Source of the DNA: Psammoneis japonica
Taxonomy: Eukaryota
Length of the DNA stretch: 64,000 nt
Direction: 5' to 3'
NCBI GenBank assembly: GCA_008632985.1
Contig: QPGO01000206.1
Coordinates: 1-64,000 of the forward strand
Below, piece by piece: positions 9 to 41,235 of this stretch; the stretch's first letter is position 1; each line of letters begins with the position of its first letter. A program made the translations under genes and the position numbers. The notes beneath the pieces are model-generated. The model was not told the DNA's origin. It ran no database searches and saw only the letters and a program-made list of their open reading frames with translations.

Positions 9-431
9 TTGCCTAGAAGCCAAAGGAAGCATATGCTCATTGCACGTCCTCTTAAGCTCTATGGATTTGAGTTGAGCCCTGCTGGCCATGCCTATGGTTC
101 AGCCTTGAAAGTGGGCAAATCGACGAAGTCATCCGAGTACACGGTACAAACTCGTGGGGTGTTCGGGTGGCCTGCCGCCGCAGCCTCATCTGGAAAGAGA
201 CTATTACCGTCATCTGGTCTCGTTGCCACACCCCAGAAGAAGAAGCCCGCCATTATTAGCCAGAAGAGTATGACTGCATTGCAGACATTCTTCAGTTCTC
301 CTCAAGGCAAGGAGATCCAGCATGTGGCCTTAGCCGTTTGCGCCGCTGCCAACACGAGTGAGGACCGCCAGCCACCTGCCGAGGACGACCGCAAGCCGCC
401 TGCCAAGCAGGACGAATGTGCCTTTGTTTAG
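9..431 (+). CDS. Hypothetical protein, probably the 3' part of a gene entering from the left edge
   Basis: 140-aa ORF ending in low-complexity EDRQPPAEDDRKPPAK repeats and followed by AT-rich, 3'-like DNA. No domain recognised. Confidence 0.3.
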   Translation: MPRSQRKHMLIARPLKLYGFELSPAGHAYGSALKVGKSTKSSEYTVQTRGVFGWPAAAASSGKRLLPSSGLVATPQKKKPAIISQKSMTALQTFFSSPQGKEIQHVALAVCAAANTSEDRQPPAEDDRKPPAKQDECAFV

Positions 432-794
432 ATTCATCCATAGCATCTTTGCTTCATCTCGCCCGTGCACTTTGGCAGTGTACATCAGCGAGCAGTCCTA
501 GCTCTATGCACTTTGGCAGCGTATATGAGCACACAGATAGTAATCCTCTAATGTAGACCTTTCTTTCAGAATACCGTATCATATCTAGAGTTCCTAAAAC
601 GCTATTGACGCTTCAACCTCAAAATGGCTACCCTGTTACCTCACGCATAGCGATAGTTAATGAAATTTGCTTTTGTAGACCGCTCAGCATTGCGTAGCTT
701 CTCGACTAATACTCCTTTGTAAATCTTATTCGAATATTATAAAGTTGGTATTCTAACACGTCCAAAGTTTTCTCACAATAAGGTGTTGCTCTCT

Positions 795-1010
795 CTAGAC
801 AACGTTGGCTGGTGGGACGACTACTGCTTCCGCTGTGATAACACTAGACCAAGCTTCACTCCATGTTGCTTGCATCTCCCGGTGCAGATCTGGGTGATTT
901 TCTTCAAACTCGGCCGGAGCCTCACAATACAGTACAACGATGGAGTCGACAGAGCTTCCAACAGCGGTCATCATGATCCCAGACGTGATGATCCCAGTCA
1001 GTATGGATAG
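795..1010 (-). pseudogene. Orphan C-terminal fragment of a choline transporter-like (CTL/PNS1) membrane protein
   Basis: GIITSGIMMTAVGSSVDSIVVLYCEAPAEFEENHPDLHREMQATWSEAW resembles the CTL/PNS1 C-terminus. There is no room for the upstream exons because the FYVE gene abuts it. Confidence 0.5.
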
Positions 1011-1329
1011 ACTTGCCAAGAAAACACACGGAAAAGGCTCGAACGTTAGCAAGCGCAAAAATCCACTACAACAACACTTACACAAACCATGGTCTGAGAA
1101 TCATTGTCCGTGTTTTCATCGTCAGCCGTCGAAGGGCAGTCTTGCGTGGGAATGTCAGCAATGGCGTGGGCAGCTGCCGTTTTCTCAAGTCTCGCTACGC
1201 CACCGTGATAATAATCGATCTAGGAGTAAATGCCCATCGACTATCACCATGCCAAGCGTCTGCACTATCTCATCACGTGCATTTTGTCCAATTAAAGTAT
1301 GTATTAATCCTAGGGCCCTACCTGTTTCA

Positions 1330-3226
1330 TGTTGAGGCTGATTCATTGGCAACACTTTTCCGGCAACAACTCCAACACAGAGGTGTAGTTTTCCAGAGTG
1401 ACTGATATATCCAAGTCACGTTCTTGCCGCCAGCGACATGCCCTTGCTCACGACAAGGTACCGCACAAAATCGAGTCGATGGTTCGACTGCGCAATTCCC
1501 AGCACAGATCGCCCCTTGGACGACACAAGCGGACCGCTCTTGCTTTTGGAAGTTGTTAAAAACAGGGAGCCATCCGATACAATGGGACAACAATGATCAT
1601 CGACCAACCACTTGAGCAGGTCAAGATTTCCGCCCATGACAGCACAATGGACAGGATACAACAGCTCGCCCTTGACATTGCAAAAGGGAGCGCTAAGGTT
1701 GAGATTGCCTGTCTTGTACAAGTCCATCACCTTGGAATAATCCCCTTGAAGCAAGGCGGCATGAAACGACGTGGGACAACCAGTCGCACGCCAAGCATAT
1801 ATTGAGACTGGAGCTGTTTTTTGCTATTGTAGGTTTCCGGCACCATTTTCGAGGACCACGTTGTAGCACACGACGAACAAATGCAAATACCGCAATTCCG
1901 GCAATGACACGGCCGTTTCAAAACGGCAAACATGGCGTGACAGATAAAGCAGGTGGGGTTTTCATCAAAGGGCATCATTCGTGGTGCCGCCAGCTGCAAT
2001 CCGACCCGACCGGCCTGATACTCACTCTCAAAGCTATAATTGATGTTCTGAACGGCACCTTCTTGATTGGTGGTGCCAATAGAGGCAATCCACATTTTGG
2101 TCGTTTTGTTTTGATAAAATTTCCACGGCAAGACCTGTCGTTGTTTAATCGCTTCCGGTGTGGATGCGATATCGATTCGCTTTCGTGGCTTGGAACCAAA
2201 CACTTTCTCCTTGATACCGCCGCCGGCGGCGGTGGATTTGGTCGTCGACTCTGTCGCTGGATAGATGTGTGTTGTTGTAGTACGCACAACCTCAGCGCGG
2301 ACCGCGTTCTGGACCATCGCACTTTGATGCAACTCTTGTTGGGCCGTTTGTTCCACTTGTTGTTCCAACAAGATGCGTTGCCTTATTTCCTGTTCCAAGG
2401 CTTCGTCAGAAACCACCTCGGCAACCACCGTTTGTTGATCCAGTGTAGCCATGTGTTCCTTTTTCTTGTCGTCTGGCTTTTGACTATCGGAAGGAGGACT
2501 CGGTGAAAGGAAACCCGTGTCTTGACGTTCAATAATGTCATCCTCGTCTCGTTCAATCACCGAGTAGGCACCCGGTCTGAAAAAATTCTCCTCGCCTTGT
2601 TCGTTATCGTGACTCTGTTGTCGATCATTAGGTGTGCTGTGAGTCGGCTGTGTAGCTACAACGAGAGCGGCGGTGGTGGCATGAGTAGGAGGAGTCCTAG
2701 GTGCAAGAGGAGGAGAAGGATTAGTTCTTGGATCTGTTGGCCTCCTTGCTGGAACAGAGGGAGGCCTTGTTGCTGTATCAGCACAAGGACGACTTCGACT
2801 CGTCGTGTCAATACGTGTTGGAGGAAGACTGCTTGATGGCGTTGTATCATCCGCGAGTCGCTTCCGTTGAGGAACAGCACGTCGTCTACCACTGCGATGT
2901 GCGAATTTTGTGACTTCGCCGCCGTCCACTTGAGGAGGCGCAGGAGCCGAACGGCGCATGTTGTTGTTTTCTGGACGGTACTTGTACGCCGAAACCTTGT
3001 CGCTCGATGTGGGACTTGCTGTTGCTTTTTGCGGTTGATGATTCCCCGATTCTTCTTCTCCCACATCACGCAACTCGCCACACATGTCGCATCTTAAATG
3101 GAGAGGATCCGAATTGATAAAGGTACAAGTGGAACACGACCATGGGCCCTTGTTCTCGCTCTCTCCCGGCGCGACCAGAGAAGGAGGGCAATTCACGGCT
3201 GCTGATGCCGGATTTTGCAACGACAT
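1330..3226 (-). CDS. RanBP2-type zinc finger + FYVE-like zinc finger + ankyrin-like repeat protein (frameshifted near 1770-1800 and 1420)
   Basis: WSCSTCTFIN..RCDMCG (RanBP2 finger); CFICHAMFAVLKRPCHCRNCGICICSSC (FYVE-like). Continues in the 1416-1754 frame with LYPVHCAVMGGNLDLLKWLVDDHCCP and GRSVLGIA..RLDFVRYLV (ankyrin-like). Confidence 0.7.
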
Positions 3227-3690
3227 AGTAGCACAATCTTATGATGGCGTCCAACTACGAGATGGTGTAAACACAAAAGCACAATCGTAGCTATGCGATG
3301 ATCTTGCTATCTGGGGCTGCAGTCACTCTGAATTCGAATTATGGTGAAGCCAAAGTGCGGGCGGGGAAGAAAGCACCGTCATGGCGTCACGAATGAGGCG
3401 CACAAGTCAGTCGTGTCTGTCTGTCCGTCTGACTGGTTGCAGCATCCAGCATCATGCGCATCGTTCTTCGGTTCTTTGCAAGAGGCAAGAGCGAGCGATC
3501 CGCAGATCGCGATGAAACGGAAGAGAGCCAGCTTCTGTTGCGAAGTTCCTTCTGTAGAGCTCTGCAGGCTCAGAGAGTGTCTGATTCCATCAAACTGGCA
3601 TGAGTCAACTCGAGGGAGCATGGAGATGAATGGCAGGGACACAAAGAAAAGCACTCGCCGTCAACGCTTGATGCGGCAGGTGGTGATCGA

Positions 3691-5199
3691 GTGCTTGCCA
3701 CAGTTAAAACTTATGATGGACACAAATGGGGATCCGAACGAGTGCTAGCGCGTGATGATGGTATCCGCGTCGATATTACACTCGACTCTCGCCAGTGGGT
3801 GCGACAGGCTATTTCGAAGAAAGAAGGAAGCGCCAGAAGTTACCGAGGAACTGCTGGGCCAACCACTCGGAGTCAACATTTTCCGTCAATACAGCATTCA
3901 AGGACTCAATCATGAAACGCGATTCCACTGCCAGTTTCATGAAAGCGCAACGCCCGACTTTGATCAGACACAACCTGGGTATCGATACAACAAACGCACA
4001 ATTGCAAATGCTCGTCCAACGCATTGGTGAGATTGCGGGGGTATCGAGGTGGAATATTGGTGTCACTGCTGTTTTGTGCAGTGGCGGAAATGATAAAATG
4101 GGGCAGCATGCAGGTGAGAAAGCGAGAAAATGTGATGTCTTAACGCGTACTTCGTTGTTGATGTATACGCGAGACCTTACGAGAATTCTAATCGAAATTT
4201 ACAGACGACGATTAAGGAGAGACGAAAATTGTGGCGCTTGTAGCCGATGCTCCTACCACTGAGCCACGTCGAGTCACAATCAAAAGCCGAAACTTGCCAA
4301 CAGGTCACTCCAAATGGGGGATCAGATAATCGAATTGATCCTGCAACCTGGTGATGCCTATATGATGGACGGTGCGTACTAACCCACCCTTCGTGCGCTC
4401 CGTTACTTCCTTGACATTATACCTCGCCATTTGAAACGTGGACACACGGGGTAGCTCGAGTTCTGCAGAAGAAGAAAGAGAAAGATGTTGCGGCTGCCAA
4501 TCGTAGACTTGCCATCATCTTTATGGATGGCGACTACGTAGAATTCGACAAGGATTCAGGTACTCCAAGCCCTGGTTTGGGGCCAATAAAGCCCTACGCA
4601 GGTCCAACATTCGGCCAAGTCGATGGCATATGTGAAGGGCATGATGTGTACACTAGAGCAGAGCTGGTGCGGAAACGCGGGCATTATGGTCATCATCGAG
4701 GCATTAGTGGCAACTCTAAGGCGGGTTGTGACACAATAATTGTCAGTGGGAATCGGAAAGGAGATGATCAGTTTTATCAAAATCATGTACGCCGCGGAAA
4801 CAAGTGTTGAAGCCTTGGCAATGGTCCTTAGCTATGAAAAGCAATTACCTATTCAAGTTTCCAATCCAAAAAGTACCCAAGCTCTTTCGTGTAATCTGCA
4901 GTTCTTGGCCCAAGAATAGTCAAGAAAGTTACCGGTATGATGGTCTCTATCTTATTCAGTCTTTTGTACCAAGCAGGAAGAAGGGTGGGTTGTTTCAGTT
5001 TCAACTCTGTCGTTGTGCTACAACTGCGGCGCCCGGCAAATCGACATGGCGTAATGCTGTTGACAGTTGTGCCTTCTACAAGGATTGTCTTGCCTTGAGA
5101 ACCATTCCGAATCGTGGACTCAACAGTATGGCAAAATATAAGAAGCTGGTATTCTTCTGGAACTTCAACGCGATATCACGGAAGAGACGCTGGGTGTAA
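3691..5199 (+). pseudogene. AlkB-like 2OG-Fe(II) dioxygenase fused to a C-terminal SRA/YDG domain, disrupted
   Basis: HxD motif MGQHA|DDD is split by an intron at 4114-4204 and followed by an in-frame TAA at 4213-4215. Also ELILQPGDAYMMDG, distal His (THGV ~4445) and RRLAIIF. SRA motifs: HRGISGNSKAGCDTIIVSG, YAAE..ALAMVLSYEKQLPIQV, YRYDGLY (4930-4950), FQFQLCR. Several frameshifts. Confidence 0.7.
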
Positions 5200-5414: not shown

Positions 5415-5885
5415 TACAGTGGGCTGAATAATATTACAAGTACGCCGTAAAGAGTCTTCCAAACGCATTAAGGAGGAGCCCCGCCTTGCTCGGACCGTAC
5501 GCCGAATACACGGCGTGAACTAAAGAAAAGTCGGTTGCCCCAAACGCCGCCTTGTCGAACACTCCGCGTAGCAATTCGCCGCCTCGAACCAGGACAATGT
5601 GTTCTTGTTGATTCCCACCAAATGCGGTCTCGGGAGTCTTTGCCTTTCACTCTAAGGAAATGCCGGGAAGTTCTTCTTCTTTCCCGTCCACAACTCTCTT
5701 GGCTTCCAAATGGCAGGAGGCACGAGTGTAATGTCGATGTCGGACCGAATCATTTCGATCCCGGAAAGACCCGTCAAGGTGGCAAACAAGAGCTGCATAT
5801 ACTCCCACTTTTCCAAAAAGGTCTCTTTGCAAGTGAGCTTGACACCACTGTCAACGTGGTCTTGAATCAATCCTCGCAGCGGCGA
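5415..5885 (-). pseudogene. RPA1: Internal fragment of the RNA polymerase I largest subunit
   Basis: SPLRGLIQDHVDSGVKLTCKETFLEKWEY..PPAIWKPRELWTGK, then after a frameshift LPGISLE*KAKTPETAFG..EHIVLVRGGELLRGVFDKAAFGATDFSLVHAVYSAYGPSKAGLLLNAFGRLFTAYL*YYS. Contains in-frame stops and lacks both termini. Confidence 0.8.
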
Positions 5886-6249
5886 TCAGTGTTTCGTTTT
5901 TTATTTGAAGCCCTGGCAATCTAACTGATGAAGCTTGGCTTGGCTCGCGGCTGAGTATTGCAGGAGGGGATGCTCTGCGTCTTTTGCAATGCCGTTCACA
6001 CGATGATCAAATGTCATCCAAAACACGACGAGGAAGAACAACTCTAAGTTATTATCATAAAACAAAAAACGAAATTACTTCGACGTCTTCTTTCTTAGTA
6101 TCCGTTGAAATCGTGATGGTTTGGAGCCAACATCTGAGCGGGGTCTCTTTCGCGTAAGGGTGGGTGTCCCCTTCACAGATTTCCATTCCTTCAATGCCTC
6201 CTCGAGGATATCTTCGCAAGCCTCTGAAATCTCTTGGACAGGGCATTTA

Positions 6250-9125
6250 GGCCCTACAAGCTCGACGGTGAAGTCCCGGAGACAGCAGTGTCAGGACAGA
6301 CCGCCGACATTTTGCACATGTGCGAGCTCGGATGGTGTGACTGGGTCATGTTCAGGGACACGGCTGTCTCATTCCCTGAAGACAAGGAGGTCCTGGGGAG
6401 GTGCATGGGCCCCAGCAGGGATGCAGGACCGGCGATGACCACCAAGACACTCAAGGAAAATGGACAAGTCATCCACAGATCCTCTGCCCTGCCGGGCTCT
6501 TGCCCCAGAGGAATGGCATCACAAGACGCACTTGGCGTTACGGAACAAATTTGATGCCAAGGCAGAGGCCAAGCTTTGTCCCAGGATGACCATCAGCGAC
6601 ATTGACAACCCCAATGTGATCACTCCCACCTTTGATCCATGCAAGGACGACTCAGAACAAGACCCATCTGGTGCCCCAGAAGCTGACACGCCAACTGACG
6701 TGGCTCACAACATCTGTGTGAATGCAGAAGTTTTGCTGCCACATGGGCACACATGCCAGACCGGCAAGGTCAAACGGCAGAAGCTGAAGCCGGACAGAAC
6801 ACTGGCAGGACAAGCCAATGCCAAACCCATCCCAGACATGCGCGTCTGTGAGGTGGAGTTCCCCGACGGTCAGGAGGCAGAACTGGCAGCCAACGTCATT
6901 GCTGAGAACATGTTTGCTCAGTGTGACAACAAGGGCGACCAGCTGGATGCTGTCGTGGACCACAAGAGCAATGAGCATGCCATCCAGAAACAAGACGCGG
7001 TCTCCCAGGATGGCAGAGGGCACCGATTCACTTGGAAAACAACCAAAGGATGGCACCTTTGTGTTCATTGGAGAGACGGTGTTGCCTCTTGGGAGCAACT
7101 TGCAGATTTGAAAGAATCAAACCAGATTGAACTGGCTGAGCATGCCAGGGCGGGATCTGTTGAAGATGAGCCCACCTTTGCTTGGTGCATTCCACATGCC
7201 TTCGAGAAGCACACACAGATTGTTGCCGCTGTCAACAAGCGTCAACTCAAGCGGACACAAGTGCAGGACACGTGTTCCCAAGACTTGTGAAGAAGCCGTC
7301 AAGATTGATGAGGGAAATGAGGACCGACAATGGCAAGATGCTGTTGACAAGGAGATGGGCACAGTCAGAAAAGCCTTTGAGGTTGTTGACAATGATGAGA
7401 ATCTGGTGGGATGCCAGCATGTCAGATGCCACTTGGTCTTTGATGTTGAACTCCAAGACTTCAAGCACAAGGCCCGCCATGTGGCAGGGGGGACACACTG
7501 CTGAACCTCCGGCTGTGATGACATGTGCCAGTGTTGTCTCTTGTGAGAGTGCAAGGATTGTGTTCACTCTTGCTGCCCTCAACAACCTTGAGGTTAAAGC
7601 CGCAGACATCAAGAGTGTCTGCATCACCGCTCCCAACAGCGAGAAGATGACTGTGACTCTGGGACCAGAGTTCAGACCTGATGCAGGTGAGAGAGCGATT
7701 GTCCAGCATGCCCTTTGTGGATTGAAGAGTGCTGGCATGTCTTTCAGAAATCATTTGGCCCAATGCATGTGACACTTGGGATGGCTGCTGTGCCTGGTGG
7801 ACCCTGATGTCTGGATGATGGAAGAGGTCCGACCCAATGATGGGTTCCTGTGCTGTGCCTGCGCACTGTTGTGTGTTGATGACATTTTGATGGTGCACCA
7901 CGATGCCACATGTGCTCTAAAGGAGATTGAACAACACCTCAAGATGAAGCCCAGTTAAACGGGTGATCCCAAGATGCATCTTGGAGCCAAGATCCGCAAA
8001 GCAGAGCTGCCGAGTGGTGTCCATGCTTGGGACATGAGTTCCAGCAAGTGCGTCTCCAACAGGCTGTCAAGAATGTAGAGGCACATCTTCATGCAAAGAG
8101 CCTGGGGAGCAAAGACGTTGCCGTGCCGGGCAACGGCCCCTTTCCCATGTGACTGTCAACCCAAGGTTGACACCACGCCTGAGCTGGATGCCAATGAAGC
8201 CAAGTTTTGCCAGTCACAGGTGGGTGTCCTGCACTGAACAGTTGAACTCAGATGTGTGGATCTCATTGCTGAGGTTTCCAAGCTTGCCTCCTTCCTCACC
8301 ATGGCAAGGGAGGGCCACCTCGAGGCTGTCCTGCATGTGTGTGCAGGTGCCTCAAGCAAGAACAGGCACAACACCAGGCTGGTGTTTGATCTGACACATC
8401 CAGACACAGACATGTCTGACTTCAAGGAATGTGACTGCAAGTCATTTTGTGGGGACGTCAAGGAGGCGGTCCCCGGCAATGCGCCAATCCCTCCAGGCAA
8501 GGAGGTTGATCTGCACCTGTTTGTTGACTTTGATCATGCCAATGACAAGTTGACAAGGCATTCACACATGGGCTTTTTCATTTGCTTGAACATGGCTTTG
8601 GTCACATGGTTTTCCAAGTGCCAGAGCACCATTGAGATTTTGGTCTTTGGTGCCAAATTTGTGGCCATGAAGCAGGGCATGGAAGCCTTGCATGGTCTGA
8701 GGTGCAAACTGCGAATGATGGGCACACCATTCTTGTCTGGTCCGTCCTGCATCCATGGTGACAACATGTCTGTCATTCATGACACGCAGAGTCCTGAGTC
8801 TACTTTGAAGAAGTTGAGCTCGATTTGCCACACCATGCTGTTAGAGAGTTGGCAGCAATGGGTGAATCCCTCACTGGACACATCCGACTGGAATGCAATC
8901 CGGTGGACATCACCACTGAGATCATGTGCGGTGGCATGAAACAAGATGGACTTGTGAGCATGATGCTTCACGAGGGATTTGCAAAGTTCAGAAACCACTT
9001 CCCTCATCCCATTGGGTTTGTTGCAGGTCACTGGGGTTTCCTTGTTGCCTTTGTGCAGCCAAACATGACCAGACTGTAAATTGAGTCAAGGTGACTCAGT
9101 GTCTGCCTCATCAACTTGAGGGGAC
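6250..9125 (+). mobile_element. 5'-truncated, hypermutated Ty1/copia (CoDi-like) LTR retrotransposon: end of integrase, reverse transcriptase, RNase H, polypurine tract
   Basis: YKLDGEVPET..GWCDWVMFRD; TTKGWHLCVHWRDG..SWEQLADLKES; CHLVFDV..FKHKARHVAGG; HALCGLKSAG; LLCVDDIL (YVDD, 7872-7883). RNase H: FVDFDHANDKLTRHS, WFSKCQSTIE, GDNMSVI..PESTLKK. PPT-like TTGAGGGGAC at 9116-9125. Confidence 0.92.
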
Positions 9126-10190
9126 CAAACAATTTACCATGTGGAATTGTGATGCAGGAATTTGTGTGTTCAATGTAGAATTTTGTCAACAATGTGGACT
9201 CAATTTGTGTGCCAAGATGAGCTCACTTCTTGAAAACAGCAGCATGATGTCGACTCACACCTTTTCTTTTAGTCTGTTCCCCAGCTCTCACCTTCACAGG
9301 GTGTTTCATTCAGCGATCTTTCACTCATGCTTCCTCCTGTTGCACTCAGCCTCTGCCATGCTTCGTTGCTCACCGTTTCCAAAGCGCTGCTGTTTGTCAC
9401 CCTTGATGCACTCTCGTGCAACAGCAATGTCAAGCAATGCTTCCCACAACAGCACACAGAATGACACATTGTAAATCCATGAGTGGGGGCCAACTGCGCT
9501 TCTAAAAAAGCCTTTTCTTCATCACAGCTTTTCCCATGTGCAGCATGCTCCCCTGATCTGTTGGATGAAGATGACAAATTTGCTCGGTTGGAGGCTCTCA
9601 CAGCATGCCGCAAGGAAGGAGCTCCTCTGTCAGAAACTTGTTCCTGTGCCGTGGAATGGCGAGTCCAACAATCACCAGAGTTGTTCAAATGGCAAATGTT
9701 TGCAGTCCTCATGGGCGCGTCCTGTTGACTTGGAGCAATGTGTGATGACATGAGAGTTTGAAGCATGGAAGGCACAGAGGTCATTTTCATCCTGGTGCTG
9801 TTGTTGCCCTCACTGATGGTTGCAGCATGTCATGTTGTTCAGTGTCAAGCAAGTCACCCTCTGCTGACATCCTGAGCAATGCATGATGGCTTGTGGGCTG
9901 ACAGCAGAGATGGCCCACAGCAACCTTTTTTTGAGAAATTGGCAAGAAGCTGCTGCTTGAGACTGTTTGAGATTGTGCTTGCTGAGCTTTCTTTTGTCTG
10001 AGCTCCACTGCTGGCCAGTCCAGCACAAACGTGGGTGCTCCTGGCTGGCACATTTTTTCAACAACAAGCCGTGTTCTCCTGGCACCTCCCACAGCGGTGT
10101 TTGAAGAGATCGTGAGTGTGTGTGATGAAATTCTCTCATCCTTCAGCTCCCAGTCCACATTCTCATAGAGAGATTGCAGAATTGTAGAGT
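6260..10190. other. TpA-depleted hypermutated block 1 (copia relic plus unidentified decayed sequence)
   Basis: About 13 TA dinucleotides in 6260-10160 by eye, none in 6541-7594. For comparison, the 60 bp at 481-540 alone contain 6. Confidence 0.95.
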
Positions 10191-10475
10191 CGGTGAGAAC
10201 CCGGAGTTTTGCATCGCGCCAATTTCCTGCTCATTCCGGTTCATTCATTTTATAAGTCATCGAATATTTTTAAAAATGCAAAATGCTCTGAGATCGAGCG
10301 CGATATTATTGCGTCCATCTTCAATCTCAGCCACAACGAAGTGATATGCTCATCAAATCAACAGTGGCAACTCAACAAAGTTTGTTTCGCCCTTATATTA
10401 TCATCTCCCGCAGCCATCTCCCATCTCCTCCATCGAGATCTTTTACTTGTCTTTTGATTCTTGTGAAAATCACGT

Positions 10476-12714
10476 ATGAGTGTGAAAGAAGACATTGTTG
10501 GTGCCTTCTCCGATGTCGGTCTCGACGGGGTCGATGATGAAATTCTTAGCAGGTGTAAGTCAACCTCTGAACGTCTCCTATGATCGCTGTGTGTCGCGCT
10601 GTATGCATCTCTCATACTGTAAGTTGCTCCTTGGGTTTCACTATTTTGTGATCAGGCGTTTTATTGGCTTCCTCGCTACACACGACTCCAACGCAAATGG
10701 CAGAAGTATGGGACGCGTACAGTCTCACCAAGAACCTTACAGAGCTGACCGATCACACCTTTCAAGGCTTTCGCAACGAATTATTCAAGCAAATGGATGT
10801 AGTCGACAAAGTATCTCAAAGCGATGGCGCCGTTGTTGCACGTCCGGGATTGGGCAAACGCAACTTACCCATGGTGACACCTCCCTCCAACAAGCGCACA
10901 ACTCCACCCGGCAATGCCCAGTCTTCCTCGGGCGTGGATTCAGTTGCTACTCGAGTATCCGTCAGTCCAACTAAGTCAGTTGTGACGCCAAGTCATATTT
11001 CCAAGTACGACGAACGCAAGGATGCTGACAAGGTGGAGGTTTCCTACCAACCCAACGACAAACTGATGGATGTTACTTCGGAAGATGATGTGTCATCAGG
11101 TCCAAGGTGTGTCGTATCGTATGGCTTTGATACCAACGTGAAAAAGCCTTATCGCCATATGTTTACTACTTTGGAAGAACGGGCGGATGCGTTAGACAAC
11201 CGCTTGGTGAAGATGGGAGACTTGATTGTGGAGCGTTATGGTATTGACAGCGACGACGAGGAGATTGCCTTACAAACTGTTGGGGTACCGGGTGAAGAAG
11301 TAGTTCGTTGTGTAGGAAGGATCTGTAGTGAAGTAAGTCTTCCCAAGAACTCGATCTTTTGCTCTTGCAGTTCTACAATTCTTGATGTTGCGCTTACATT
11401 TCTCTTCGATTTTTATTTGTTCAGGCTCACATGGGCAAGATGAATGACACGTCGGTTGTGCTGGAGGGATGCCGTCACGTGTCGAACGGATGCCGCATCA
11501 GCATCGACTTGTCCAAAATCAAGGAGTCCAAAGCCCCCTTCTCTCTTTTTCCCGGACAGATCGTCGCGATTGAGGGAGTTAACCATTGTGGTCGCGATAT
11601 GGTGGCGCACAAAATTTGCGAGGGCGCTGCGCACGCCGCCAACAAGAGTACAGTGGAGGATTTGATTCGCTATCATTATGACGTGCAGAATGGACAGCCA
11701 CTCAAAATTGTATCGGTTTGTGGGCCTTATACTACAAGCGACAATCTCGAGTACGCACCGCTCTTGGATTTGATGCAGGCGATCCAGAGGGAAAAGCCTG
11801 ACCTTGTCATTATGACCGGACCATTTGTTGATTTGCGACATGAACAAATCAAAGAAGGCGATTTGATGTTGGACACGGAGGATGGTACAAAAATGAACGT
11901 TGACTATGATGCATTCTTTGCTAACAAGGTGGCTGCATATATTGAAAGTTTGTTTGAAGAAGAAGAAATTCACACCCAATTTGTCCTTGTTCCTAGTATG
12001 GACGACGCCAACGCTGAATGGGTGTAAGTCTTGCAGTTACGTTTTCTACCAGATTTTCTTTGCATTGACTTAACTTCTCATTTTATCTTCGTGCATAGGT
12101 ACCCTCAAGCACCCCTGACCGATCGAGTGCCAAATGGAGGAAAGCTTGTGTCTTTCCCTGGCTTGGACGGACTTGAGTTTGGAACCCTTGGGTTGCACCA
12201 TGTCGAGACGGCTGGAGAAACGTCAACGAAAAAGAGTCGCCGGGTTCATTGTGTATCCAACCCTTGTACCCTCAAGGTGAACGAGATTGTGATTGGCGTT
12301 GGCTCTGCAGACGTTCTCTTTGATATGAACAAGAATGCCACCAACGGAAACCTTGTTCCTGGCACCACCATTATGCGCATGGCGCAGCACTTGCTTCTTC
12401 AGCAATCTTACTATCCTCTCTTTCCGTCCGAAGAAGCAAATTTGGACTTGAAGCATATGCAGCAGTGTGATATGCCTTGTCAACCGGACGTGTTGATTGT
12501 TCCATCCAAGCTCCAGCGCTTTGCTCGTACCGTGTTGGAGCATACGGTCGTTGTGAACCCCGGATATTTAAGTCGGGGCCCTACTGGCGGGACGTACTCG
12601 ACCATGAACATTCATCCGATTCCCCGCGAGACACTTGAAAACGCCGCTGACGGTACCGTGGAGATGGAGCATAATGTTCATGATCGAATCCAAGTGGAAA
12701 TCAAACGTATCTAA
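10476..12714 (+). CDS. POLA2: DNA polymerase alpha subunit B; exons 10476-10554, 10656-11332, 11425-12023, 12099-12714
   Basis: GT-AG introns restore the frame. Motifs: YRHMFTTLEERADALD, VGRICSEAH, FSLFPGQIVAIEG, GPYTTSDNLEY, PDLVIMTGPFVD, VSNPCTLKVNE, QSYYPLFP, PDVLIVPSKL, VVNPG. Confidence 0.95.
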
Positions 12715-16687: not shown

Positions 16688-19600
16688 TTAAGTTCGAGTC
16701 AAGCTCTTATAGGCTTCCGTGACAGCCTGGAATCTCGTCGCCGTGTCTGGCAACTTTGATTTGTCCGGGTGGTAGGCCAAGGCGAGTCTACGGTATTGGG
16801 CTTTGATGACGTGGACCGGGCAACCGGGTGGTAAACCGAGCCTTGCGTACAAGTTTGGCCACTTGTAATGATCCCAGCGTAGCTTGGAAATATCTTCAAC
16901 TGGACGAGTGAAAACTGGTTGTCTGCCGGTACTAGCGGCTGCGCCGCGTTGAACAGCTCGTGCACGTGCTTCTCTGATAAGTCGTTCCTGCTCCTGCTGT
17001 GCAGCGCTTTGAGAATAGTTGTAGTTGTACGCGGTATCGTTGGGAAATTTCGCCGCGCTTTGAGAATAGTTGTAGCTGTACTCGGTATCGTTGCGAAATT
17101 TTGGCTTTGAAAACACAAAATTAGTGTTCTGTGAGTTGGGTTTTGCGGCATTTTCGGGTCTTGCTGTGCGAAGATTAGGAGGTACGTTCGCCTTTGCTGC
17201 TTTCCGCTTGGCAGCCCCGGGTTGCGGACACGGCTTCGCAGCACTCGCACCATACACTTGCTGAGCCCGCGGTGCTCCTGAACAGAAACTTCGAAGTGGC
17301 CTTTTTGTGGGCGGGATGCTTTCTGATGAGGAGTGCAACGATCGCTTATCGCAATTGTCGTTCTCGCTCAAATCAATGACAGCAGCTCGTTTTGGTGCCT
17401 TCGGCTTGCTTTCGGTACATCTGGATGCAACATCATCAACGTCTTCACTCAAATCAATGATAGTCTTCTTGGTCTTCGAGGAACGATGTTGGGTACTCGT
17501 GACTTTGGGCTTCTTAAGCGTTGGTTTTGCCTTTTTGAGAACAGGAGAAATTTCGTCATCGCTGCTGTCGATCACGATTGGGTCATTGGGACCTACTCGT
17601 GCACGTTTTAATGCTGATGGTTGAGTCCCAGGGACTTCCCGTTGTTCCAACCTCGCTCTCTCTCCCTCGCTCTCAAGACGGCAGTCGCTCACAATGTGGC
17701 TGTCAATGTTGCAAGAAGTTTCTTTCCCATTCGCTTGATCAGTTGCGCTCGCTTTCTTGTTATCAGACACCTGCTGGCGGCCTGTTCCAATTTCGCGTAA
17801 CGACTTCGACCTCTCAGGGCCATCGTCGCATGCACTGCTATCCTTGGCATGCGCTGACGACGTCGTAATACGATCCATATTGTAATTTTGCTTCATTGGC
17901 ATTTCACTTCCTTTCATTTCTGTTGTTTGTCGTTTCATTTCTGTTGTATGTTGTTGCGGCTGTGCAATAAGATCGCATTCAACATCTCCCGCACTTCTGT
18001 CGAAAGTATGCTCCTTTGAACCCTCGCCGTTGGCAACACCAATATTGTGGCTCAGCGGGTGTGTCATCTGCTCCGCTGAATCTAAACCCTTGCTCGTCTT
18101 TCTAGATTTGGCAATGCAATCGTCTACATGCACTCGAATACCCATAGGTTCCCTGGAAGGCGCCAACGGCGAACTACTCCCATGGCCGACACCATTCGTC
18201 TGAAGTTCGGCCACGCTGGCTAGATCCACATCGCTAAACTTGGCTGTATCTTTGCACTCCCCGCTAGGTTTCTTTGCGACTTTGTCCATCTCTTTACATT
18301 CGAGATCTGTATTCTGGGAGGAGGGTGCGCCTGACGACGGAGACGCACGTTCGCTGGCCATTTCCGTGTCCTTTCTTAACCCCGCACCGCTGATGTCAGT
18401 CAAGATAGCGCGTGACGGTCTTTCGTTGCAATAAGTGTCCGAAGATAGTTTCGAGGACTTGACAAGCTCACCATCTGACGAAGCATCTCTCGTTGTGTAA
18501 CGAGATGACAAATTCTTCTGCATCTGATTTTCTCTTGGCGCTGCTTTAACTCGAGAGCTACCGGGATCAGAAGTTTGAATTTCTCCTAGTCGGGAGAACG
18601 AGGCACTTTCTCCGTTGTTTCCTTGATCCTCAGACTTGTTTATATCGATGCCGTTTTGATCTGCCGCCAGAGGCAGAATCTTTTCTCTCGATCCTTCGGT
18701 GGAGCTGACAGCCACCGAGCAACGGGCGCGTTCGCTGCCTATATCGACCACACCCGCGGATGCCACGTGCAGCCCTTCAGCTTGAGCCGGAAGTTTCGCA
18801 GAAATACTGAATGGTTCTTCTGCCGCTTTCGTATTTCGTGCAGCCAATGGATGCTGGGTCGTGTCTTCCGCATTAGCACCATCACCTTGCTTCTCATTCA
18901 CATTTCTCTCCGGCGTTTGCTTTGCGTTCGGTTTATCTAAAACTGGTCGATCAACGCTGCGCTTGTCATCCTTCTGCACAGTGTTAACATCATTCTGCTG
19001 TTTCTCTTCAATCACTGCTGCAAACGGACCTTCTCCCGCATCCATTCCCCGTGCATCTATCGGCTTTGCCAGTACTGGCTTTTCAGAACATCGGTCGGTA
19101 CTGACTGGCTTCCCTTCCTCGTCGATGCCTCTTTTTCCTGTTAACCCTACAGCATCTTCCTTTGCAGTTGCTTTGGGTGGAGCCTTGAACGCCACATCTC
19201 TCTTTTCACCGAATATTGCCGCACCCGGTGCTATGCGTAAGCCCTTTTCAGTATTCGGTTGGGCTGTACTCTTCGAACTCTCGGCTTGACCTCCGCTACT
19301 GTAGGATCCTCTGTTACCTTGTCGACTAGATCGCTTCGTTGAGCTAGTCTTTTGTTCGGCTTCGGGTTTCTTCTTGGTCTTTTCTTCCGCCCGAGACCAT
19401 GTTTTGTTGGGGAATAACTTCTTCTGTCGCCGATTCTTGGGCGATTGCTTTTTCCGTTTTTTTCCTTCGATACGATCCGGGTGATCCTTCCTAACCTCTT
19501 TACGCCTGCCAACGGCGCGCCTTTTATCAGTCAGCAGCACTTCTCTTTCTTTCGCTCGAGTCGTCTGTTGTTGTTTCCCTAACGTTCTCGAGACATATGC

Positions 19601-22331
19601 CGCACTGGCTTTCATGCAACTTTCCGCTGAACTCTTGTCTTCGGCCCGCACCATAGGCCGTGTCGTCTGCTCGACGGAATCTACACTTTCGCTCGTCTTC
19701 GTAGAGTCGGGAGTGCAATCGTTTACGTGAAATGGAGGACCCACAGGCTTCCTCGAAGAAACCGGCGGTCCCTTTCTGCCCAAAGCACTTCTCCCGTGAG
19801 CGTTGCCATTCTTGTGTAGTCTAGACACGTTGTCCTCCAGATCTACTGTGCAAGCCAATGCTGCCTTTCTACACTCCCTGCTAGGCTTCTCTGATATGCC
19901 GTCCACCTTCTTGCCTTCGATATCTGTACTAAGGGAGGCGGCGCCTGACGACTGAACATTAGACATACTTTCGCTCGCTCTCTTTGAGTCATCATCCTTG
20001 AGGCAACCACTTCTGGTCTCAGCCAACATCGCATGTTTCCCTTGTTCACTGCTGTAATTGTGAACACTCTGTCTCAGAAAGCTGACAGTCGCTGCCCCCG
20101 ACGAAGCCTTTCCCGTTGTAAAAGGAGGTGAAACGCCAACTCTAACACATGCAGGATTCCTTTGTATTTCGTTTTCTCTCGACGTCTCCTGCTCTCGAGA
20201 GCGACCGGGATCGGGCGTTTGAACTTCTGGAAGACGGGAGAACGAGGCACTTTTCCCCTTATTTTCTCGATCCTCGGACTTGCCGACTTCGCAGCCGTTA
20301 TGTTTGGCTATCGTAGGAAGTTTGGTTATCGTAGGAAGACTCGTTTGTTTCGGTCCTTCGGTGGAGCTGACAGCCACCGAGCAAGGGGTGCGTTCACTGC
20401 CCATAACGATAACCTCTGCGCTTGCAACGTGCAGCGCTTCAGTTTGAGCCGTATGGTCCGCAGAAACATTAATTCGCTCTTTTCTCGTTTCCTTTTTGCG
20501 TACAACAAAGGATTCTGGGATGCGCCTTCCCCGATGGCACTAACCGTTTGCTTTTTCGTTGCACTTTTCCACCTCGTTTGCTTTCCGTTCGCTACATCCA
20601 GACATGGCTGATCAACACCGCGCGCGACATTCTTCTGCATACTCCCGGACTGACTCTTTTGTTTCTTTTCAACCATCACTGGTGCCAATGGACCATCCCC
20701 TGCATCCGTTTGCCCTGTACCCATTGGAGTTGTGATCGCTGGCTTTTCAGAGCAATCGTCGGCATTGATTGGCTTCCCTTTCTGGACCGCTTTTGGAGGA
20801 GCCTTGAACACAACATCTTTCTTGTCACCAAATATTGCCGCCCCCGGTGCTATGCGCAAGCCCTTTTCAGCCGTCGTTTCGGTGATATTCTTGGAAGTCT
20901 TGGCTTGATCTCCGCTCTCGAGTGGTCCTCGTTTAGCATGACGAGGATGGCTCGTTCTAGCTGTGAGTTTTTGTTCGTGCTGGGGATTTTCCTTGGCATT
21001 CTCCTTCGCTCGAGACCACGTTTTGTTAGGGAACAACTTTTCTTGCGTCACATTAGATGACGACTGCTTTTTCCGTCTTTTCTGTACACTGTTATCTTGC
21101 GGTTCCAGTCGGCTTCGCTTTCCCCCCCTTTCGGTACTAGCTCTTTCCCGCTGATAATCTCCCCTGAAATTAGCATGGCTCTGATGATTCTTTGTTGAGA
21201 GCAAACCTCCTCTCCGTCTGACATCCCCACGACCTTCACTACGTACGCCATCTGCATTTGACCCGAGATTAGGAGGAAGCCGCCGTTGTTGTTCTCGAGG
21301 GAGACGCCTATCGATATAGAACGACTCTCTTCTTCTCATTTCATCAGTCTCATGTTGCATGCGTGTAGGAGGCGTCCCCAAGGGTTGTCCGTTGTCGTGA
21401 CGGAAAAAGTGGTGGGCTTGATTGTTACCCCTGTAATCGTTTCTTCCCAAGTCTCGTCGTATTGGAGGCAAATGACAAGGCCGCTGGAATTCTCGGCGAA
21501 AGCCGCTTTCTTTTGCTTGAAACCCGTTGCTGTTTCGTTCTCTTTGTGTATTACCTGCCCCTCGTTTATCGACTCTTTGTTTCTTTTGTTTCTTTGTTTC
21601 TTTCGCTTCTTCTTTTTCTTCTTCTGAGTAGAATGATCACCACCCGAATCTTTTTTTTCACATCGTGAATCAGATGCACCGAGCGACTTATCCATAATAT
21701 TATTTGTGCTATGATCCGTTTTTTGAACAGGAGGAGTGGCTTTAGTAGATGCCGCAGCAGCTGACTGAATTCGGTTGATATTTGCTTCATTCTTCTGCTT
21801 CTTCAGTTTCCGTTGCATACGTTTCTTTTTTCTCTTAGAAACTGGTGAGTCAGTAGATTTTGCGTCATGATTCCGAGGCTTGCTTGGTATTTGCTGAAAC
21901 GCATTGTCGCATGGGAGAGCGTCCAAGTCAACGCAGTCCCAGAAATCTCCGTGATTCTGTGGCAACTTTTGTGGCTTTGCGCTTCGTTCGTCGGTTTCTC
22001 CCTCCCAGTAAATATCAACGACGTCAGGCATATAGTTCGCACCAATAGGTTCATACTGATCCATATGCGCAACACCACCTGGCCGGGTTGGCTGCGTCGA
22101 TTTAGTTTCGCCTGTCAAGTCAATGACATTATGTTCACTCCGGTTCGCATCTGCCTGTATCGCTCCATCAGGACCAGAGAGACTGCGCCCTGGAACGACT
22201 GTCTCTCCACTTCCAAACGTCTTTTGGGTTATTGCCTCCATTTCATGTCTCCACGTTAACGTAAGACCACTGTCGTTTCGTCGTCGCCTTACTACTTCTA
22301 TGATAGCGGCACTGCTTGACAGCGTCGTCAT
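16688..22331 (-). CDS. Very long low-complexity protein with a C-terminal DnaJ (J) domain; frameshifts near 21470 and 20450-20520
   Basis: C-terminal LYARLGLPPG..IKAQYRRLALAYHPDK..RFQAVTEAYKSL. Three consecutive overlapping ORFs (21336-22532, 20326-21471, 16688-20404) share repeated peptides. Confidence 0.7.
18070..21050 (-). repeat. Diverged ~1.6-kb intragenic tandem duplication in the J-domain gene (about 19660-21050 and 18070-19430)
   Basis: KLFPNKTWSRA, EKGLRIAPGAAIFG.K.DV.FKAPPKA, GSER..CSVAVSSTEG and SASFSRL.E.QT.DPG each occur twice, about 1.6 kb apart. Confidence 0.85.
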
Positions 22332-29050: not shown

Positions 29051-30371
29051 CGTCACGTACCTGGAAAACCCGTGTGGAAAGGTTAGCTTCGTGACTTGAC
29101 AATAACAACTGTAGCACGTTCCTTTTGCAACGTCGGAGGCAAAAGCAGTACTGTACAGAAGTGGAAGCCAACCTCCAACCGCTTCTTCCCTCTCGGTCAC
29201 GGAATTTTTGGAAAAAATGAGAAAGATGCAAAAAAGATCCGGATCTTTTTGTAGCACTATCGCACTGTACGTACAATGCTTACGTATCAATGTAGGGCGA
29301 GCCTGCCAGCCACGTGGACTGTTTACAGCAGGGCCTCTACTCTAGCTACCGTAGCTAGAGGGCCCTACATATTACGATTGATCCTACGTACGTCGATCCA
29401 TACCACCATCGACGTCAACAATTCGGCAATTTTTTCATATTCGTGGCCGGTTAACGGAAAAGGGAAAAAAGGAGGGGATTCAACCATTCGATGCACACAA
29501 AAATTGACCATGCAAGCAGGGCCAGAGATTCATTGGCTTCTTCTTTGTGGTCTGGGGTGGTTGCCGCAGGGGCAAAAGCTGGGTGCACATTGCAACTTCA
29601 GGGTGACCATTGGCTCAAAGGCTGCATCTGGGGAGGGCCAGGGAGAAGAAAAACACGCAAGCTTGGCTGCTTGCTTTTCAAACCCTGGTGTGTTGTCCTG
29701 AGCAAGCTCTTGAGAGAAGAGTGAGAGAGGTTCTGGCTGCATTGCTGTGCAGAGAGTTTTGTTGCTGGCATGTCTCAGGTTGTGCACTCAGCATGCTCAA
29801 TGACTCTTGGGCCCAACCTCACTCAGAGCTTTTTTGTGCCAACAGCAAGCTCAAAGTTGTTCTGCTGTGCCAACAAATGACAAACACGAGCTTGAGGAGG
29901 CTTGTGTGCAATTTTGCAGCTGTGGCATTGGGGGTGCCAATGACACAAGCTCCTGCCAGCTCCAACCTTGGCTCAGGGTTTTGGAGACACTGGTGTCTCT
30001 TGCTCAGCTGTGAAAAGCTGTGGCATGTGGGGTCAGCATGCAGCCCAGGAGCCAGGCTGCCTGCACTCCTTTTGCAGATGGTGCAAAGTGCTGTTGTGAC
30101 TGCACAAGGAGGGCAACTCTTGTGGTTGTGCTGGTGTTCTGAAGGTGTGGGTGTGCCCCTGGGAAGCTGCAAATGAAGAGCTCAGCATTGCCGCCAGCAC
30201 CAGATGTGCATTGCTGCCCTCTGTGTCTTGTGGTTCTGGGAGCCTGCAAACTCAAGTTGGGCATCTCAGCTGGTGCAGCTTGGCAGACCATCTTGATTGG
30301 AGCCTGGCATGGAGGAGGGAAACATGCAGAAAAGTTTTGCAGGAGCTATTCTGTCAATGGTGGCTGGGGCA

Positions 30372-30972
30372 GCCTGGGTTGTGGGAACTTTCTTTTGATG
30401 GAAGCCAAGCAGCCACAGCAAAAGAAGATGTTTTTGTGACTGAGCATCTGACAGACATGGTTTGCACACAGAGAGCTGTCCTCTGCTCAAGCTCCAGTGA
30501 GCAGCGTGCTCCAAAGGTGACATTGCACACGTGCTTGTGCATCAAAACATGTGCCTCTTGCTTCAGACCCCATGTGCAGCACGGCTGTGTGGAGAGGCTT
30601 GTTGCAGGCACATCTCACAGGAGGTCTCATGCTTGGCTCTCAACCTTGGTTTTAATTTCTCAGCTGGCAGCTCAGCAAACAGTCGTGACTGCAGCTTGGT
30701 TTGTGGGTGGCGCTGTTGCCAAGAACCACTCTGGGGGGGAGGGGACAAGCAGAAGGGTTTTGCAGGAGAGCTGTTTTGTCACGAGTGCTCAGGATGGCCT
30801 GGGCTGCTGCAGATTTTGTTGATGAAAGCCAAGCAGCCACAGTGCAAGAGAAGATGATTTTGTGATTGAGCATCTGAATGACAAAGCCCAGGCATGTGGA
30901 GAGCTGTCCACATGATCTCAGCTCCAGCAAGCAGCAGGCTCCAAAGGCAACATTGCACGGGCGAGCTCGTGT
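30372..30972. repeat. Diverged ~170-bp direct repeat pair (30372-30540 and 30797-30972)
   Basis: Both copies share TTGATG(G/A)AAGCCAAGCAGCCACAG, GAGCATCTGA, GAGAGCTGTCC and CTCCAAAGG..ACATTGCAC. Confidence 0.8.
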
Positions 30973-31436: not shown

Positions 31437-31560
31437 CGTCAACCATTTAGCTGTCTTTGTGCCGAAGTAGAAATTTTAATCAGGGGATTTCGTCAACCAT
31501 TTAGCTGTCTTTGAGCCGAAGCAGAATTTTTAATTGTGGAATGTCGTCAACCATTTGGCT
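31437..31560. repeat. 54-bp tandem repeat, about 2.3 copies
   Basis: CGTCAACCATTT at 31437, 31491 and 31545. Confidence 0.85.

Positions 31561-41231: not shown

Positions 41232-41235
<4 letters not shown>

Follow-up and report, generated by a model that had tools for sequence, protein, structure and literature searches.

The window, which is the whole analysed stretch of 64,000 nucleotides (64 kb) of Psammoneis japonica DNA, contained four tracts depleted in the dinucleotides TA and CG that together made up 29.8 kb. The observed/expected ratio (o/e) of TA was 0.03-0.08 in the tracts compared to 0.58 outside, and that of CG was 0.11-0.64 compared to 1.01. The tracts were as follows:

6256-10165, unstranded: depleted tract 1 (TA o/e 0.06, CG 0.34, TG 1.78, CA 1.72)
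29453-41352, unstranded: depleted tract 2, unclassified (TA o/e 0.04, CG 0.11)
44100-53885, unstranded: depleted tract 3, unclassified, start approximate (TA o/e 0.03, CG 0.15)
58300-62485, unstranded: depleted tract 4, start approximate (TA o/e 0.08, CG 0.64)

The edges of the tracts were sharp and lay beside normal genes. At the edge of tract 2, TA occurred every ~10 bp up to 29452 and the next 895 bp were TA-free, while at the start of tract 3 the last dense TA at 43964 was followed by sparse TAs at 44155, 44318 and 44489. Tract 1 started within a copia fragment and ended ~1.2 kb beyond its pol, and its limits are not those of the repeat. The 5′ ~120-200 bp of the copia homology (6075-6255) kept TAs that were lost in other copies, and 9500-10165 was TA-free, yet no other contig of sequencing run X1 was found there at ≥80% likeness. 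Compared to the background, TA and CG together were lower by 80.7 per kb and TG and CA together higher by 78.9 per kb, with the ancestral composition of tracts 2-4 taken as that of the background. The GC content of the tracts was ~48-51%.

Tract 2 included ~190-bp tandem repeats at 37515-38442, and tract 4 included a minus-strand LRR-like ORF and a young tandem duplication. Tracts 2-4 may be classed as repeats from their internal tandem repeats and a single paralog pair. A Pfam search produced no informative match for the 81 ORFs of at least 110 aa and none for the 30 six-frame read-through translations of tract 2 (X at stops), and two marginal matches (E 0.002 and 0.009), taken as chance, for the 127 ORFs of 70-109 aa. 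The tract 4 ORF (60152-61138, minus strand) was compared with 2215 candidates similar in length, none of which was homologous at E ≤ 0.001, and a protein atlas gave a lead to diatom LRR_6-type clusters (score 0.92, with recognition below the usual level). In addition, a transition-blind self-comparison in a purine/pyrimidine alphabet added no inter-tract homology to the ordinary blastn pairs.

The repeat in tract 1 was identified as a retrotransposon remnant with the following features:

6255-8974, plus strand: 5′-truncated Ty1/copia pol pseudogene (integrase C-terminal region, RT and RNase H), from colinear tblastn HSPs at 40-56% identity to 88 diatom RVT_2 polyproteins
7851-7883, plus strand: RT active-site stretch, CCACALLCVDD compared to YYAYxLLYVDD in relatives, from the homolog consensus and per-codon counts

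The pol homology was interrupted by frameshifts and four in-frame stops, some of which were derived by transversion. The fragment was colinear with its homologs from residues ~350-450 to the C-terminus of diatom RVT_2 polyproteins of 1250-1370 aa, and the integrase core, protease and gag were lost by the 5′ truncation. The 88 homologs carrying PF07727 were 50-56% identical to the fragment over ~455 residues, and the best named relatives, from Nitzschia and Fragilaria, also carry PF07727. By homology, the fragment is thus assigned a predicted RVT_2-type reverse transcriptase of the Ty1/copia superfamily; its membership in the CoDi clade is a putative one, taken from an earlier reading of the sequence alone (hereafter the sequence-only reading). 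The Pfam RVT_2 score on the read-through (X at stops) was 22.3 bits (E 1.1e-4), below the gathering score of 31.6, so that even a copia RT sharing 50% identity with its relatives goes unrecognised by Pfam. Ordinary and purine/pyrimidine-alphabet self-comparison of the window detected no flanking direct repeat pair that could represent LTRs or a target-site duplication; absence of an LTR pair is expected for a truncated copy. The family is multi-copy, as run X1 has 192 contigs that match 5500-10500 at ≥80% likeness.

Nearly all Tyr codons (TAY) of the copia element had become Cys (TGY) or His (CAY), and many Arg codons (CGN) had become His, Gln, Cys or Trp. The window had Cys at 16, His at 6, Tyr at 1 and other residues at 3 of the 26 codons where at least 60% of the 88 homologs have Tyr (8829 and 8831 being a single Tyr site read in two frames). 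In the same columns, the homologs had Tyr in 1892 of 2097 cells, His in 14 and Cys in 6, so that replacement by Cys or His stood at 22/26 in the window and 20/2097 in the homologs (Fisher P = 6e-37). The Cys and His fraction in these columns was 0.85 in the window and at most 0.29 in 156 homologs, none of which exceeded 0.3 in a set biased to intact copies. The short fragments P0172, P0181 and P0150 were nearly Tyr-free and span too few conserved Tyr columns to judge. The sequence-only reading had proposed that conserved Tyr became Cys or His and that a Tyr codon survived at the very edge. Both proposals held, TAC at 6255 being the sole Tyr among the 26 sites, and intact relatives, which were searched for Cys or His at these sites, carry Tyr.

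The individual motif changes listed in that reading were compared with a 30-sequence consensus and per-codon counts. Clear agreement was obtained for WYEW to WCDW, TYASVVSRES to TCASVVSCES, RALYGLK to HALCGLK, KYYAYxLLYVDD to LCCACALLCVDD (7851-7883), AEYA to AEHA, YIYGDN to CIHGDN and KILK to KTLK. Two others were plausible: for GRY to GRC, Tyr was present in 28 of 85 homologs, and for DVGPA to DAGPA, the site was Ile in 46 and Val in 24 of 85. Codons 7851, 7854, 7860 and 7872 were TGC or TGT where 87-99% of the homologs have Tyr. The copy is considered dead because its YxDD box reads CVDD and because of the stops and frameshifts, as had been supposed from the altered RT active site.

The changes were specific to two dinucleotides. 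Among 156 mismatches at conserved codons there were 31 TA>TG, 12 TA>CA, 26 CG>CA and 11 CG>TG changes, and the rest were 19 other transitions, 27 transversions and 30 mismatches that no single change explains. Hence 80 of the 99 single transitions inferred at conserved sites were TA>TG/CA or CG>TG/CA, an enrichment at ancestral TA and CG that the sequence-only reading had anticipated. Its view that A>G and T>C both occur on the sense strand also agreed with these counts. Over 6256-10165 (3910 bp), TA was found 13 times compared to 231 expected from base composition and ~134 expected at the window background o/e (Poisson P = 5e-41), and CG was found 88 times compared to 258 expected. TG and CA gained about equally (446 compared to 250 expected and 409 compared to 238 expected, respectively). 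The pol loci of 80 metagenomic relatives, a set biased to intact copies, had a TA o/e of 0.46-1.24 (median 0.685) and none showed the depletion signature; one of the patterns by which these loci and the 156 homologs were searched contained Tyr. One of these relatives (L027) had a CG o/e of 0.0. Overall, the signature ascribed to copia was confirmed there, but that view was partial since the signature covers four tracts and 29.8 kb rather than copia alone.

Direct comparison of mutated and unmutated sequence was possible with repeats inside the window:

31624-32109, plus strand: mutated copy of a short repeat, paralog of 42320-42779
42320-42779, plus strand: unmutated paralog of ordinary TA and CG content, within the spacer with genes that separates tract 2 from tract 3
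61091-61938, plus strand: overlapping tandem copies 61091-61556 and 61472-61938, 97.9% identical

In the mutated copy, 12 of the 14 TAs of the normal copy were converted (CA 8, TG 4), as were 16 of its 19 CGs (TG 9, CA 7), and the remaining sites were ~5-13% different. The ~450-bp repeats 41735-42163/54237-54681 and 42320-42779 had normal composition, so some repeats escape. The tandem copies in tract 4 differed at 10 places (CG/CA 4, TA/TG 2, a TG↔CA pair at 2 places, T/G 1 and one indel), at least seven of which were CG/CA, TA/TG or TG/CA alternatives. Conversion thus took place after this stretch of genomic, non-copia DNA had been duplicated.

Sister copies of the copia element gave a similar picture. 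Contigs of run X1 on the element differed by transitions at 522 and by transversions at 182 places. In the 40 best supported of these 704 differences, which are not a random sample, 26 were TA or CG against TG or CA, including five adjacent TG↔CA doubles, and no copy within the tract had a plain TA opposite TG or CA here. At 7447/7448, where the ancestor had T|A (consensus Val-Lys), T|G is seen in this copy and C|A in others; each copy thus had its own outcome. CG decay was gradual and polymorphic among copies. By comparison with the homolog consensus, the unmutated paralog and the sister copies, the direction of change is fixed as TA to TG or CA. Since the same ancestral TA was resolved differently per copy and both strands were hit, the DNA itself is changed in place and each copy separately.

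Strand choice along the element showed no significant clustering, with 28 runs among the 80 inferred events compared to 33.8 ± 3.6 expected (P = 0.07). The efficiency of TA loss depended on the flanking bases. The 86 surviving TAs were YTAR in 43, mixed in 40 and RTAY in 3 cases, compared to 232, 661 and 414, respectively, for the 1307 background TAs (chi-square 64, P = 1e-14). As survivors are mostly YTAR, a preference for TAY (or RTA) is implied. The TG excess before Y was 26.3 compared to 14.7 per kb, and the CA excess after R was 21.3 compared to 16.6 per kb. Within Tyr codons the TAY rule was not detected (His after R 3 and Y 2, Cys after R 7 and Y 9; P = 0.64). Inside pol there were seven TAs, four of them in agreement with ancestral residues. 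TA was lost to a uniform extent and CG to a varying one, a pattern suggestive of a rapid process at TpA alongside a slower decay of CpG. We infer that the TpA step is fast and active, proceeding ~60 times as fast as change elsewhere in tract 1, and that it is kinetically separate from the CpG decay, the latter fitting ordinary 5mC deamination.

These results probably reflect a RIP-like, DNA-level hypermutation of silenced repeats in a pennate diatom. Such a process would work in place on particular genome tracts of repeated, probably silenced and methylated sequence, selected by repeat or chromatin state. On either strand TpA would give way to TpG or CpA almost completely, and the CpG of these tracts would decay to TpG/CpA. 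The copia element would thereby have lost nearly all its Tyr codons and its RT active site, in effect a genome defence comparable to fungal RIP.

The alternative that keeps some, though clearly minor, probability is a modified base at TpA in silenced tracts (for example 5hmU or 5fU, oxidised forms of thymine, made by a TET/JBP-type enzyme, or N6-methyladenine at symmetric TA) that mispairs at replication, with no deaminase and no RIP-like episode. TpA would then decay continuously like methylated CpG, only faster. TA and CG are self-complementary, so a mark could be maintained on both strands, and both were lost in identical tracts; outcomes were strand-random site by site and the CG decay was gradual and polymorphic among copies, as such an account would have it. 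5hmU prefers TpA in dinoflagellate DNA. However, in the youngest-looking tracts TA was already ~95% lost but CG only 36-66%. Moreover, the 40 best-supported of the 704 inter-copy differences included no copy that keeps a plain TA inside the tract, which a fast saturating step fits better than slow decay.

It is very unlikely that copia RNA or cDNA was hyper-edited before integration in an ADAR-like (A to I) or APOBEC-like manner, so that insertions arrive mutated. The element is a retrotransposon, its copies have their own outcome at the same ancestral site, and ADARs prefer A-to-G change after U. However, the changes were neither confined to one strand nor limited to retroelements: A>G and T>C as well as C>T and G>A occurred on the sense strand with equal TG and CA gains, and the signature was present in 26 kb without retroelement features and distinguished two tandem genomic duplicates. 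Furthermore, tract 1 ended inside the copia homology on the 5′ side and overran the repeated part on the 3′ side, and a 5′-truncated copy is not a fresh integration product. To our knowledge, ADARs are restricted to animals.

A sequencing or assembly artefact, in which base-callers misread modified CG and TA in heterochromatin as TG and CA, is slightly more improbable still. Systematic consensus errors at methylation motifs occur in nanopore-only assemblies, and no library type is recorded for runs X1 and X2. Nevertheless, Logan contigs of run X1, which is possibly the assembly source, reproduced the window letter for letter in pieces of several hundred bases to 5 kb (in the copia region exactly over 6217-6822, 7353-8085 and 9215-10500), and such exact matches at a word depth of ~114 imply accurate reads. 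A motif-specific miscall would not produce paralogous contigs of which one reads TG and the next CA at a given site, and the pseudogene also has frameshifts and transversion stops. Finally, native composition, with TA and CG always avoided by a foreign or viral source or a TE lineage through selection or the mutational bias of the donor, has a negligible probability and is refuted for copia by the TA o/e of at least 0.46 in the 80 relatives, the replaced catalytic and invariant Tyr, and the conversions seen directly in the unmutated paralog and sister copies, even though UpA and CpG are under-represented in many viruses and retroelements and one metagenomic relative lacks CG.

The favoured hypermutation is RIP-like: as in Neurospora crassa and other fungi, transitions approach saturation only within tracts of repeated DNA, have a dinucleotide context, strike both strands and stop sharply next to intact genes, while copies mutate independently, TEs lose their coding capacity and short repeats escape. 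With regard to the length threshold of RIP, copia was multi-copy, ~450-bp repeats escaped and tract 1 overran the repeated part. However, RIP is a C-to-T change mainly at CpA that makes TpA and raises AT content, and its host is a fungus and not a diatom. C-to-T at CpA/CpG with a gain of TpA was not the pattern found in the tracts: TpA was destroyed, TpG and CpA were the products, GC content stayed at ~48-51% and half of the changes were A:T to G:C, for which neither cytosine deamination nor a DNMT can be the source. DNMT4, which is related to the RIP factor RID and has an unknown function, is encoded in diatoms apart from Phaeodactylum, and CG methylation of diatom TEs has been described (both in PMC9998398). 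The CG changes resembled the decay of methylated transposons, being CG to TG/CA on both strands of TE DNA (CG>CA 26, CG>TG 11), gradual and polymorphic among copies, but 5mC decay accounts for the CG half only and TpA disappeared sooner and to a greater extent. ADAR and APOBEC3 also inactivate retroelements through clustered transitions, but their substrates are RNA or single-stranded cDNA and their traces stay on one strand within the element, whereas the diatom tracts were symmetric, changed in place and included non-retroelement DNA. Diatom Ty1/copia elements of the same superfamily as the fragment were described as CoDi groups (Maumus et al. 2009, PMC2806351), and the main text of that paper contains no mention of deamination, hypermutation, dinucleotide or point mutation. 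The literature searched, which comprised main texts largely from outside the subscription journals, yielded no account of repeat hypermutation from TA to TG/CA.

Given the rest, our guess for the chemistry, which we hold at somewhat below an even chance, is enzymatic deamination of adenine to hypoxanthine in 5′-TAY-3′ by a CDA-fold deaminase that could also deaminate C in CG. According to PMC10354150, amphioxus ADAT2/3 (TadA family) carries out both C-to-U (5′-TCG-3′ preferred) and A-to-I conversion on DNA, the same reaction pair as would be needed in the diatom tracts, although its adenine context is GAA and not TA; the likeness is one of biochemical plausibility only. More tentatively, and with a lower probability, a defence system may deaminate adenine at 5′-TAY-3′ in double-stranded or transiently opened DNA of silenced repeats, with the same or a partner enzyme possibly acting on C in CG.

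Defence by tract-confined point mutation is known almost exclusively in fungi, always with cytosine as its basis. If true, a TpA-erasing process would extend such defence to a major algal lineage and would involve an unfamiliar DNA mutational chemistry, either adenine deamination or a mutagenic T/A modification. If the adenine reading is true, a natural A:T to G:C equivalent of RIP would have been met for the first time, and a naturally occurring adenine deaminase that acts on DNA in a short, defined context would be implied; a TA-specific enzyme of this kind would be of interest to base-editing research. The process would also account for the half of the region that escapes domain and homology searches, and TE dating and annotation in diatom genomes would be biased. 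As the signature is easy to screen (TA and CG near zero, TG and CA ~1.8), it is directly testable in other diatom assemblies.

The copia pol pseudogene of the window was delimited by homology as follows:

6255-8974 (+), copia pol homology, in the same order as the C-terminal ~2/3 of diatom RVT_2 polyproteins

The matching polyproteins (1250-1370 aa, Pfam RVT_2) were from Nitzschia inconspicua, Fragilaria crotonensis and Nitzschia sp. Nitz4, and the window copy showed 40-56% identity to diatom polyproteins, spread over three frames with 4 in-frame stops. Gag, protease and integrase core were absent from the copy and self-comparison in the ordinary and purine/pyrimidine alphabets showed no LTR pair at it; the copy is 5'-truncated. 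A phmmer search against 1.84 billion representatives produced 3013 relatives, the closest at ~50%. In run X1, a sequencing run of the same sample, 192 contigs aligned to 5500-10500 at ≥80% likeness, 30 near-identical and 110 <90% alike, which indicated that the copia family is multi-copy.

A total of 88 homologs of ≥900 aa were aligned to the window and residues common to ≥60% of them defined 564 conserved codons, at 408 of which the window retained the consensus residue. The 26 Tyr columns read Cys at 16, His at 6 (two of the six being a single site read in two frames), other residues at 3 and Tyr at 1 (TAC at 6255). The sequence-only reading, that conserved copia Tyr turned into Cys or His by TA and CG transitions, was borne out: 22 of 26 Tyr columns had changed in this way compared to 20 of 2097 homolog cells (Tyr 1892, His 14, Cys 6; Fisher P = 6e-37), and Cys plus His at conserved Tyr columns reached a maximum of 0.29 among the 156 homologs tested for already carrying them. 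The window had R 18, H 8, Q 4, L 3, C 2, W 1 and P 1 at 37 Arg columns, and I 13, V 8, T 4, M 1 and L 1 at 27 Ile columns. Sorting of the 156 mismatches by the single base change giving back the consensus residue resulted in 31 TA>TG, 12 TA>CA, 26 CG>CA, 11 CG>TG, 19 other transitions, 27 transversions and 30 with no single-change explanation. Substitutions were concentrated, as claimed, at ancestral TA and CG, which held 80 of the 99 single transitions at conserved codons. More purine than pyrimidine changes on the sense strand are expected because third-position T>C and C>T are silent; raw counts in tract 1, the depleted stretch around the pseudogene, were nearly equal (TG 446, CA 409). Against a 30-homolog consensus, the motifs cited in that reading held except 'GRY' and 'DVGPA', which are minority residues. 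Three short database protein fragments related to the copia ORF (P0172, P0181 and P0150) were almost without Tyr and enriched in Cys; with few conserved Tyr columns covered, they may represent copies in other places that mutated in a similar way.

The depletion far exceeds copia in extent, and four tracts were found:

6256-10165, tract 1, 3910 bp, TA o/e 0.06, CG o/e 0.34
29453-41352, tract 2, 11900 bp, TA o/e 0.04, CG o/e 0.11
about 44100-53885, tract 3, 9786 bp, TA o/e 0.03, CG o/e 0.15
about 58300-62485, tract 4, 4186 bp, TA o/e 0.08, CG o/e 0.64

TG and CA o/e were 1.5-1.9 in each tract; the gene-bearing remainder (34.2 kb) showed TA 0.58, CG 1.01, TG 1.15 and CA 1.17. Per kb, the tracts had lost 80.7 TA+CG and gained 78.9 TG+CA relative to background, a near-equality that conversion would predict for ancestors of background composition. 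Tract edges were abrupt; at the left of tract 2, TAs spaced ~10 bp apart continued to 29452, adjoining the pyruvate kinase gene, and were followed by 895 TA-free bp. The left limit of mutated tract 1 fell inside the copia repeat and not at its end; at this 5' edge (6075-6255) the TAs at 6075, 6097, 6155 and 6210 were kept and other copies had TG/CA. At its right, 9500-10165 shared the lack of TA seen across tract 1, had no other run X1 contig at ≥80% likeness and dropped to the single-copy depth of 113.8; it is either a repeat of greater age and divergence or flanking DNA into which the process has spread.

Tandem arrays were present in depleted tracts at 37515-38442 (period ~190 bp, ~80% identity, ~91% in the purine/pyrimidine alphabet), 30311-30977 and 52539-53150. 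Short GA/TC-rich simple repeats at 34782-34817 and 41237-41272, towards the right side of tract 2, matched each other in inverted orientation and translated to ERER or SLSL runs. A direct repeat of ~440 bp (41735-42163 and 54237-54681, 86.8% identical) was placed ~350-380 bp right of tracts 2 and 3, with normal composition and differences consisting of ordinary transitions, transversions and indels. In tract 4, a 329-aa open frame at 60152-61138 (-) resembled a leucine-rich-repeat protein and had no homolog at E≤0.001; a protein atlas pointed to diatom LRR_6-type clusters with a score of 0.92, below the usual recognition level, which serves as a lead only.

Flanking ORFs carried the eukaryotic domains FYVE, SAD/SRA, DNA polymerase alpha subunit B, protein kinase, TruB, DnaJ, SNase, pyruvate kinase, GNAT, Vps16 and HSP90, and the pyruvate kinase had 73-80% identity to proteins of raphid pennate diatoms (Fistulifera, Craspedostauros, Nitzschia, Seminavis); the window is evidently nuclear DNA of a diatom. 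An uninterrupted 1283-aa ORF at 16691-20539 (-) with a C-terminal DnaJ domain had an internal repeat of ~1.4 kb (18061-19462 vs 19660-21081, 65.6% identical). SRA domains bind and flip methylated cytosine; the two neighbouring ORFs at 4415-5196 (+), ~1 kb upstream of tract 1, had weak SAD/SRA matches (E 3e-4 and 1.4e-6, neither reaching the Pfam cutoff), and their position is probably a coincidence.

Ancestral states were taken from three independent comparisons: homolog consensus, run X1 sister copies and a 460-bp repeat pair:

42320-42779, normal-composition member
31624-32109, member inside tract 2

In the tract 2 member, 12 of 14 TAs of its partner read CA or TG and 16 of 19 CGs read TG or CA, with other bases 5-13% different. 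Differences among the run X1 copia copies comprised 522 places with transitions and 182 with transversions. Among the best-supported 40 of these 704 differences, 26 were TA/CG vs TG/CA; ten were five adjacent TG<->CA doubles, six were sites with CG still present in other copies, five had CG in the window copy and TG or CA in others, four at the 5' edge had TA in the window copy and TG/CA in others, and CA at 8407 was read as TA, adjoining a second change at 8408. At 7447/7448 the window had T|G (Lys to Glu) and other copies C|A, with the ancestor T|A from the consensus Val-Lys. These differing outcomes at the same sites indicated that each copy mutated on its own, starting from an ancestor that had TA and CG. 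The two young tandem copies of tract 4 were 97.9% identical and at least 7 of their 10 differences were CG/CA, TA/TG or TG<->CA alternatives, so the process acts also on duplicated non-retroelement genomic DNA. Short repeats escaped depletion.

TA loss was uniform over the tracts (o/e 0.03-0.08), CG loss varied from 36% to 89%, CG was polymorphic among copia copies, and no plain TA was retained in another copy inside the tract among the best 40 of 704 differences. We infer that the TpA step is fast and nearly saturating and CpG decay slower; with only ~5% divergence at tract 1 non-context sites, the rates there are estimated as roughly 60-fold (TpA) and 20-fold (CpG) higher than at other sites. 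In L027, a metagenomic copia relative, CG o/e was 0.0 over 124-4079 with a normal TA o/e of 0.48, which showed that the two depletions are separable in other hosts. The 86 surviving TAs were YTAR 43, mixed 40 and RTAY 3, compared to 232, 661 and 414 of 1307 background TAs (chi-square 64, P = 1e-14); of 7 inside pol, 4 matched ancestral residues and 2 were new transversion stops. TG excess was greater before pyrimidine and CA excess after purine. The pattern fits a target of A in 5'-TAY-3' or, equivalently, T in 5'-RTA-3'; the small sample of Tyr codons did not confirm TAY preference (P = 0.64), and outcomes along copia formed no strand runs (28 vs 33.8 ± 3.6 expected).

The simplest route for A to G would be adenine deamination to hypoxanthine, with a mutagenic modification at TpA, on either T or A, as the main alternative. 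PMC10354150 describes natural ADAT2/3 as acting on DNA both by C-to-U (TCG preferred) and A-to-I. DNMT4, a relative of the RIP factor RID, is encoded by diatoms other than Phaeodactylum according to PMC9998398; it could play a part in targeting or in the CG half, but would not account for A:T to G:C. Several observations disfavour RNA or cDNA editing: the strand-symmetric changes, the affected but unclassified tracts 2-4, in which no retroelement features were found, the tandem genomic duplicates distinguished by the same changes and the tract limits that coincide with neither repeat start nor end. Miscalling of modified bases is also disfavoured, as Logan contigs were identical to the window at word depth ~114 (run X1 may be the assembly's source) and paralogs showed alternative outcomes at the same sites. 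Native composition for copia was refuted by the Tyr columns and by 80 metagenomic relatives, whose pol regions had a TA o/e of 0.46-1.24; TA depletion is thus not a family trait.

A full-text literature search, covering few subscription journals and no supplements, found no description of TA to TG/CA repeat hypermutation, and none was found in the consulted parts of the CoDi paper (PMC2806351) and a 2025 diatom-TE preprint. The proposed process would act on DNA in place, tied to repeat or chromatin state, with a RIP-like logic but the opposite effect on TpA.
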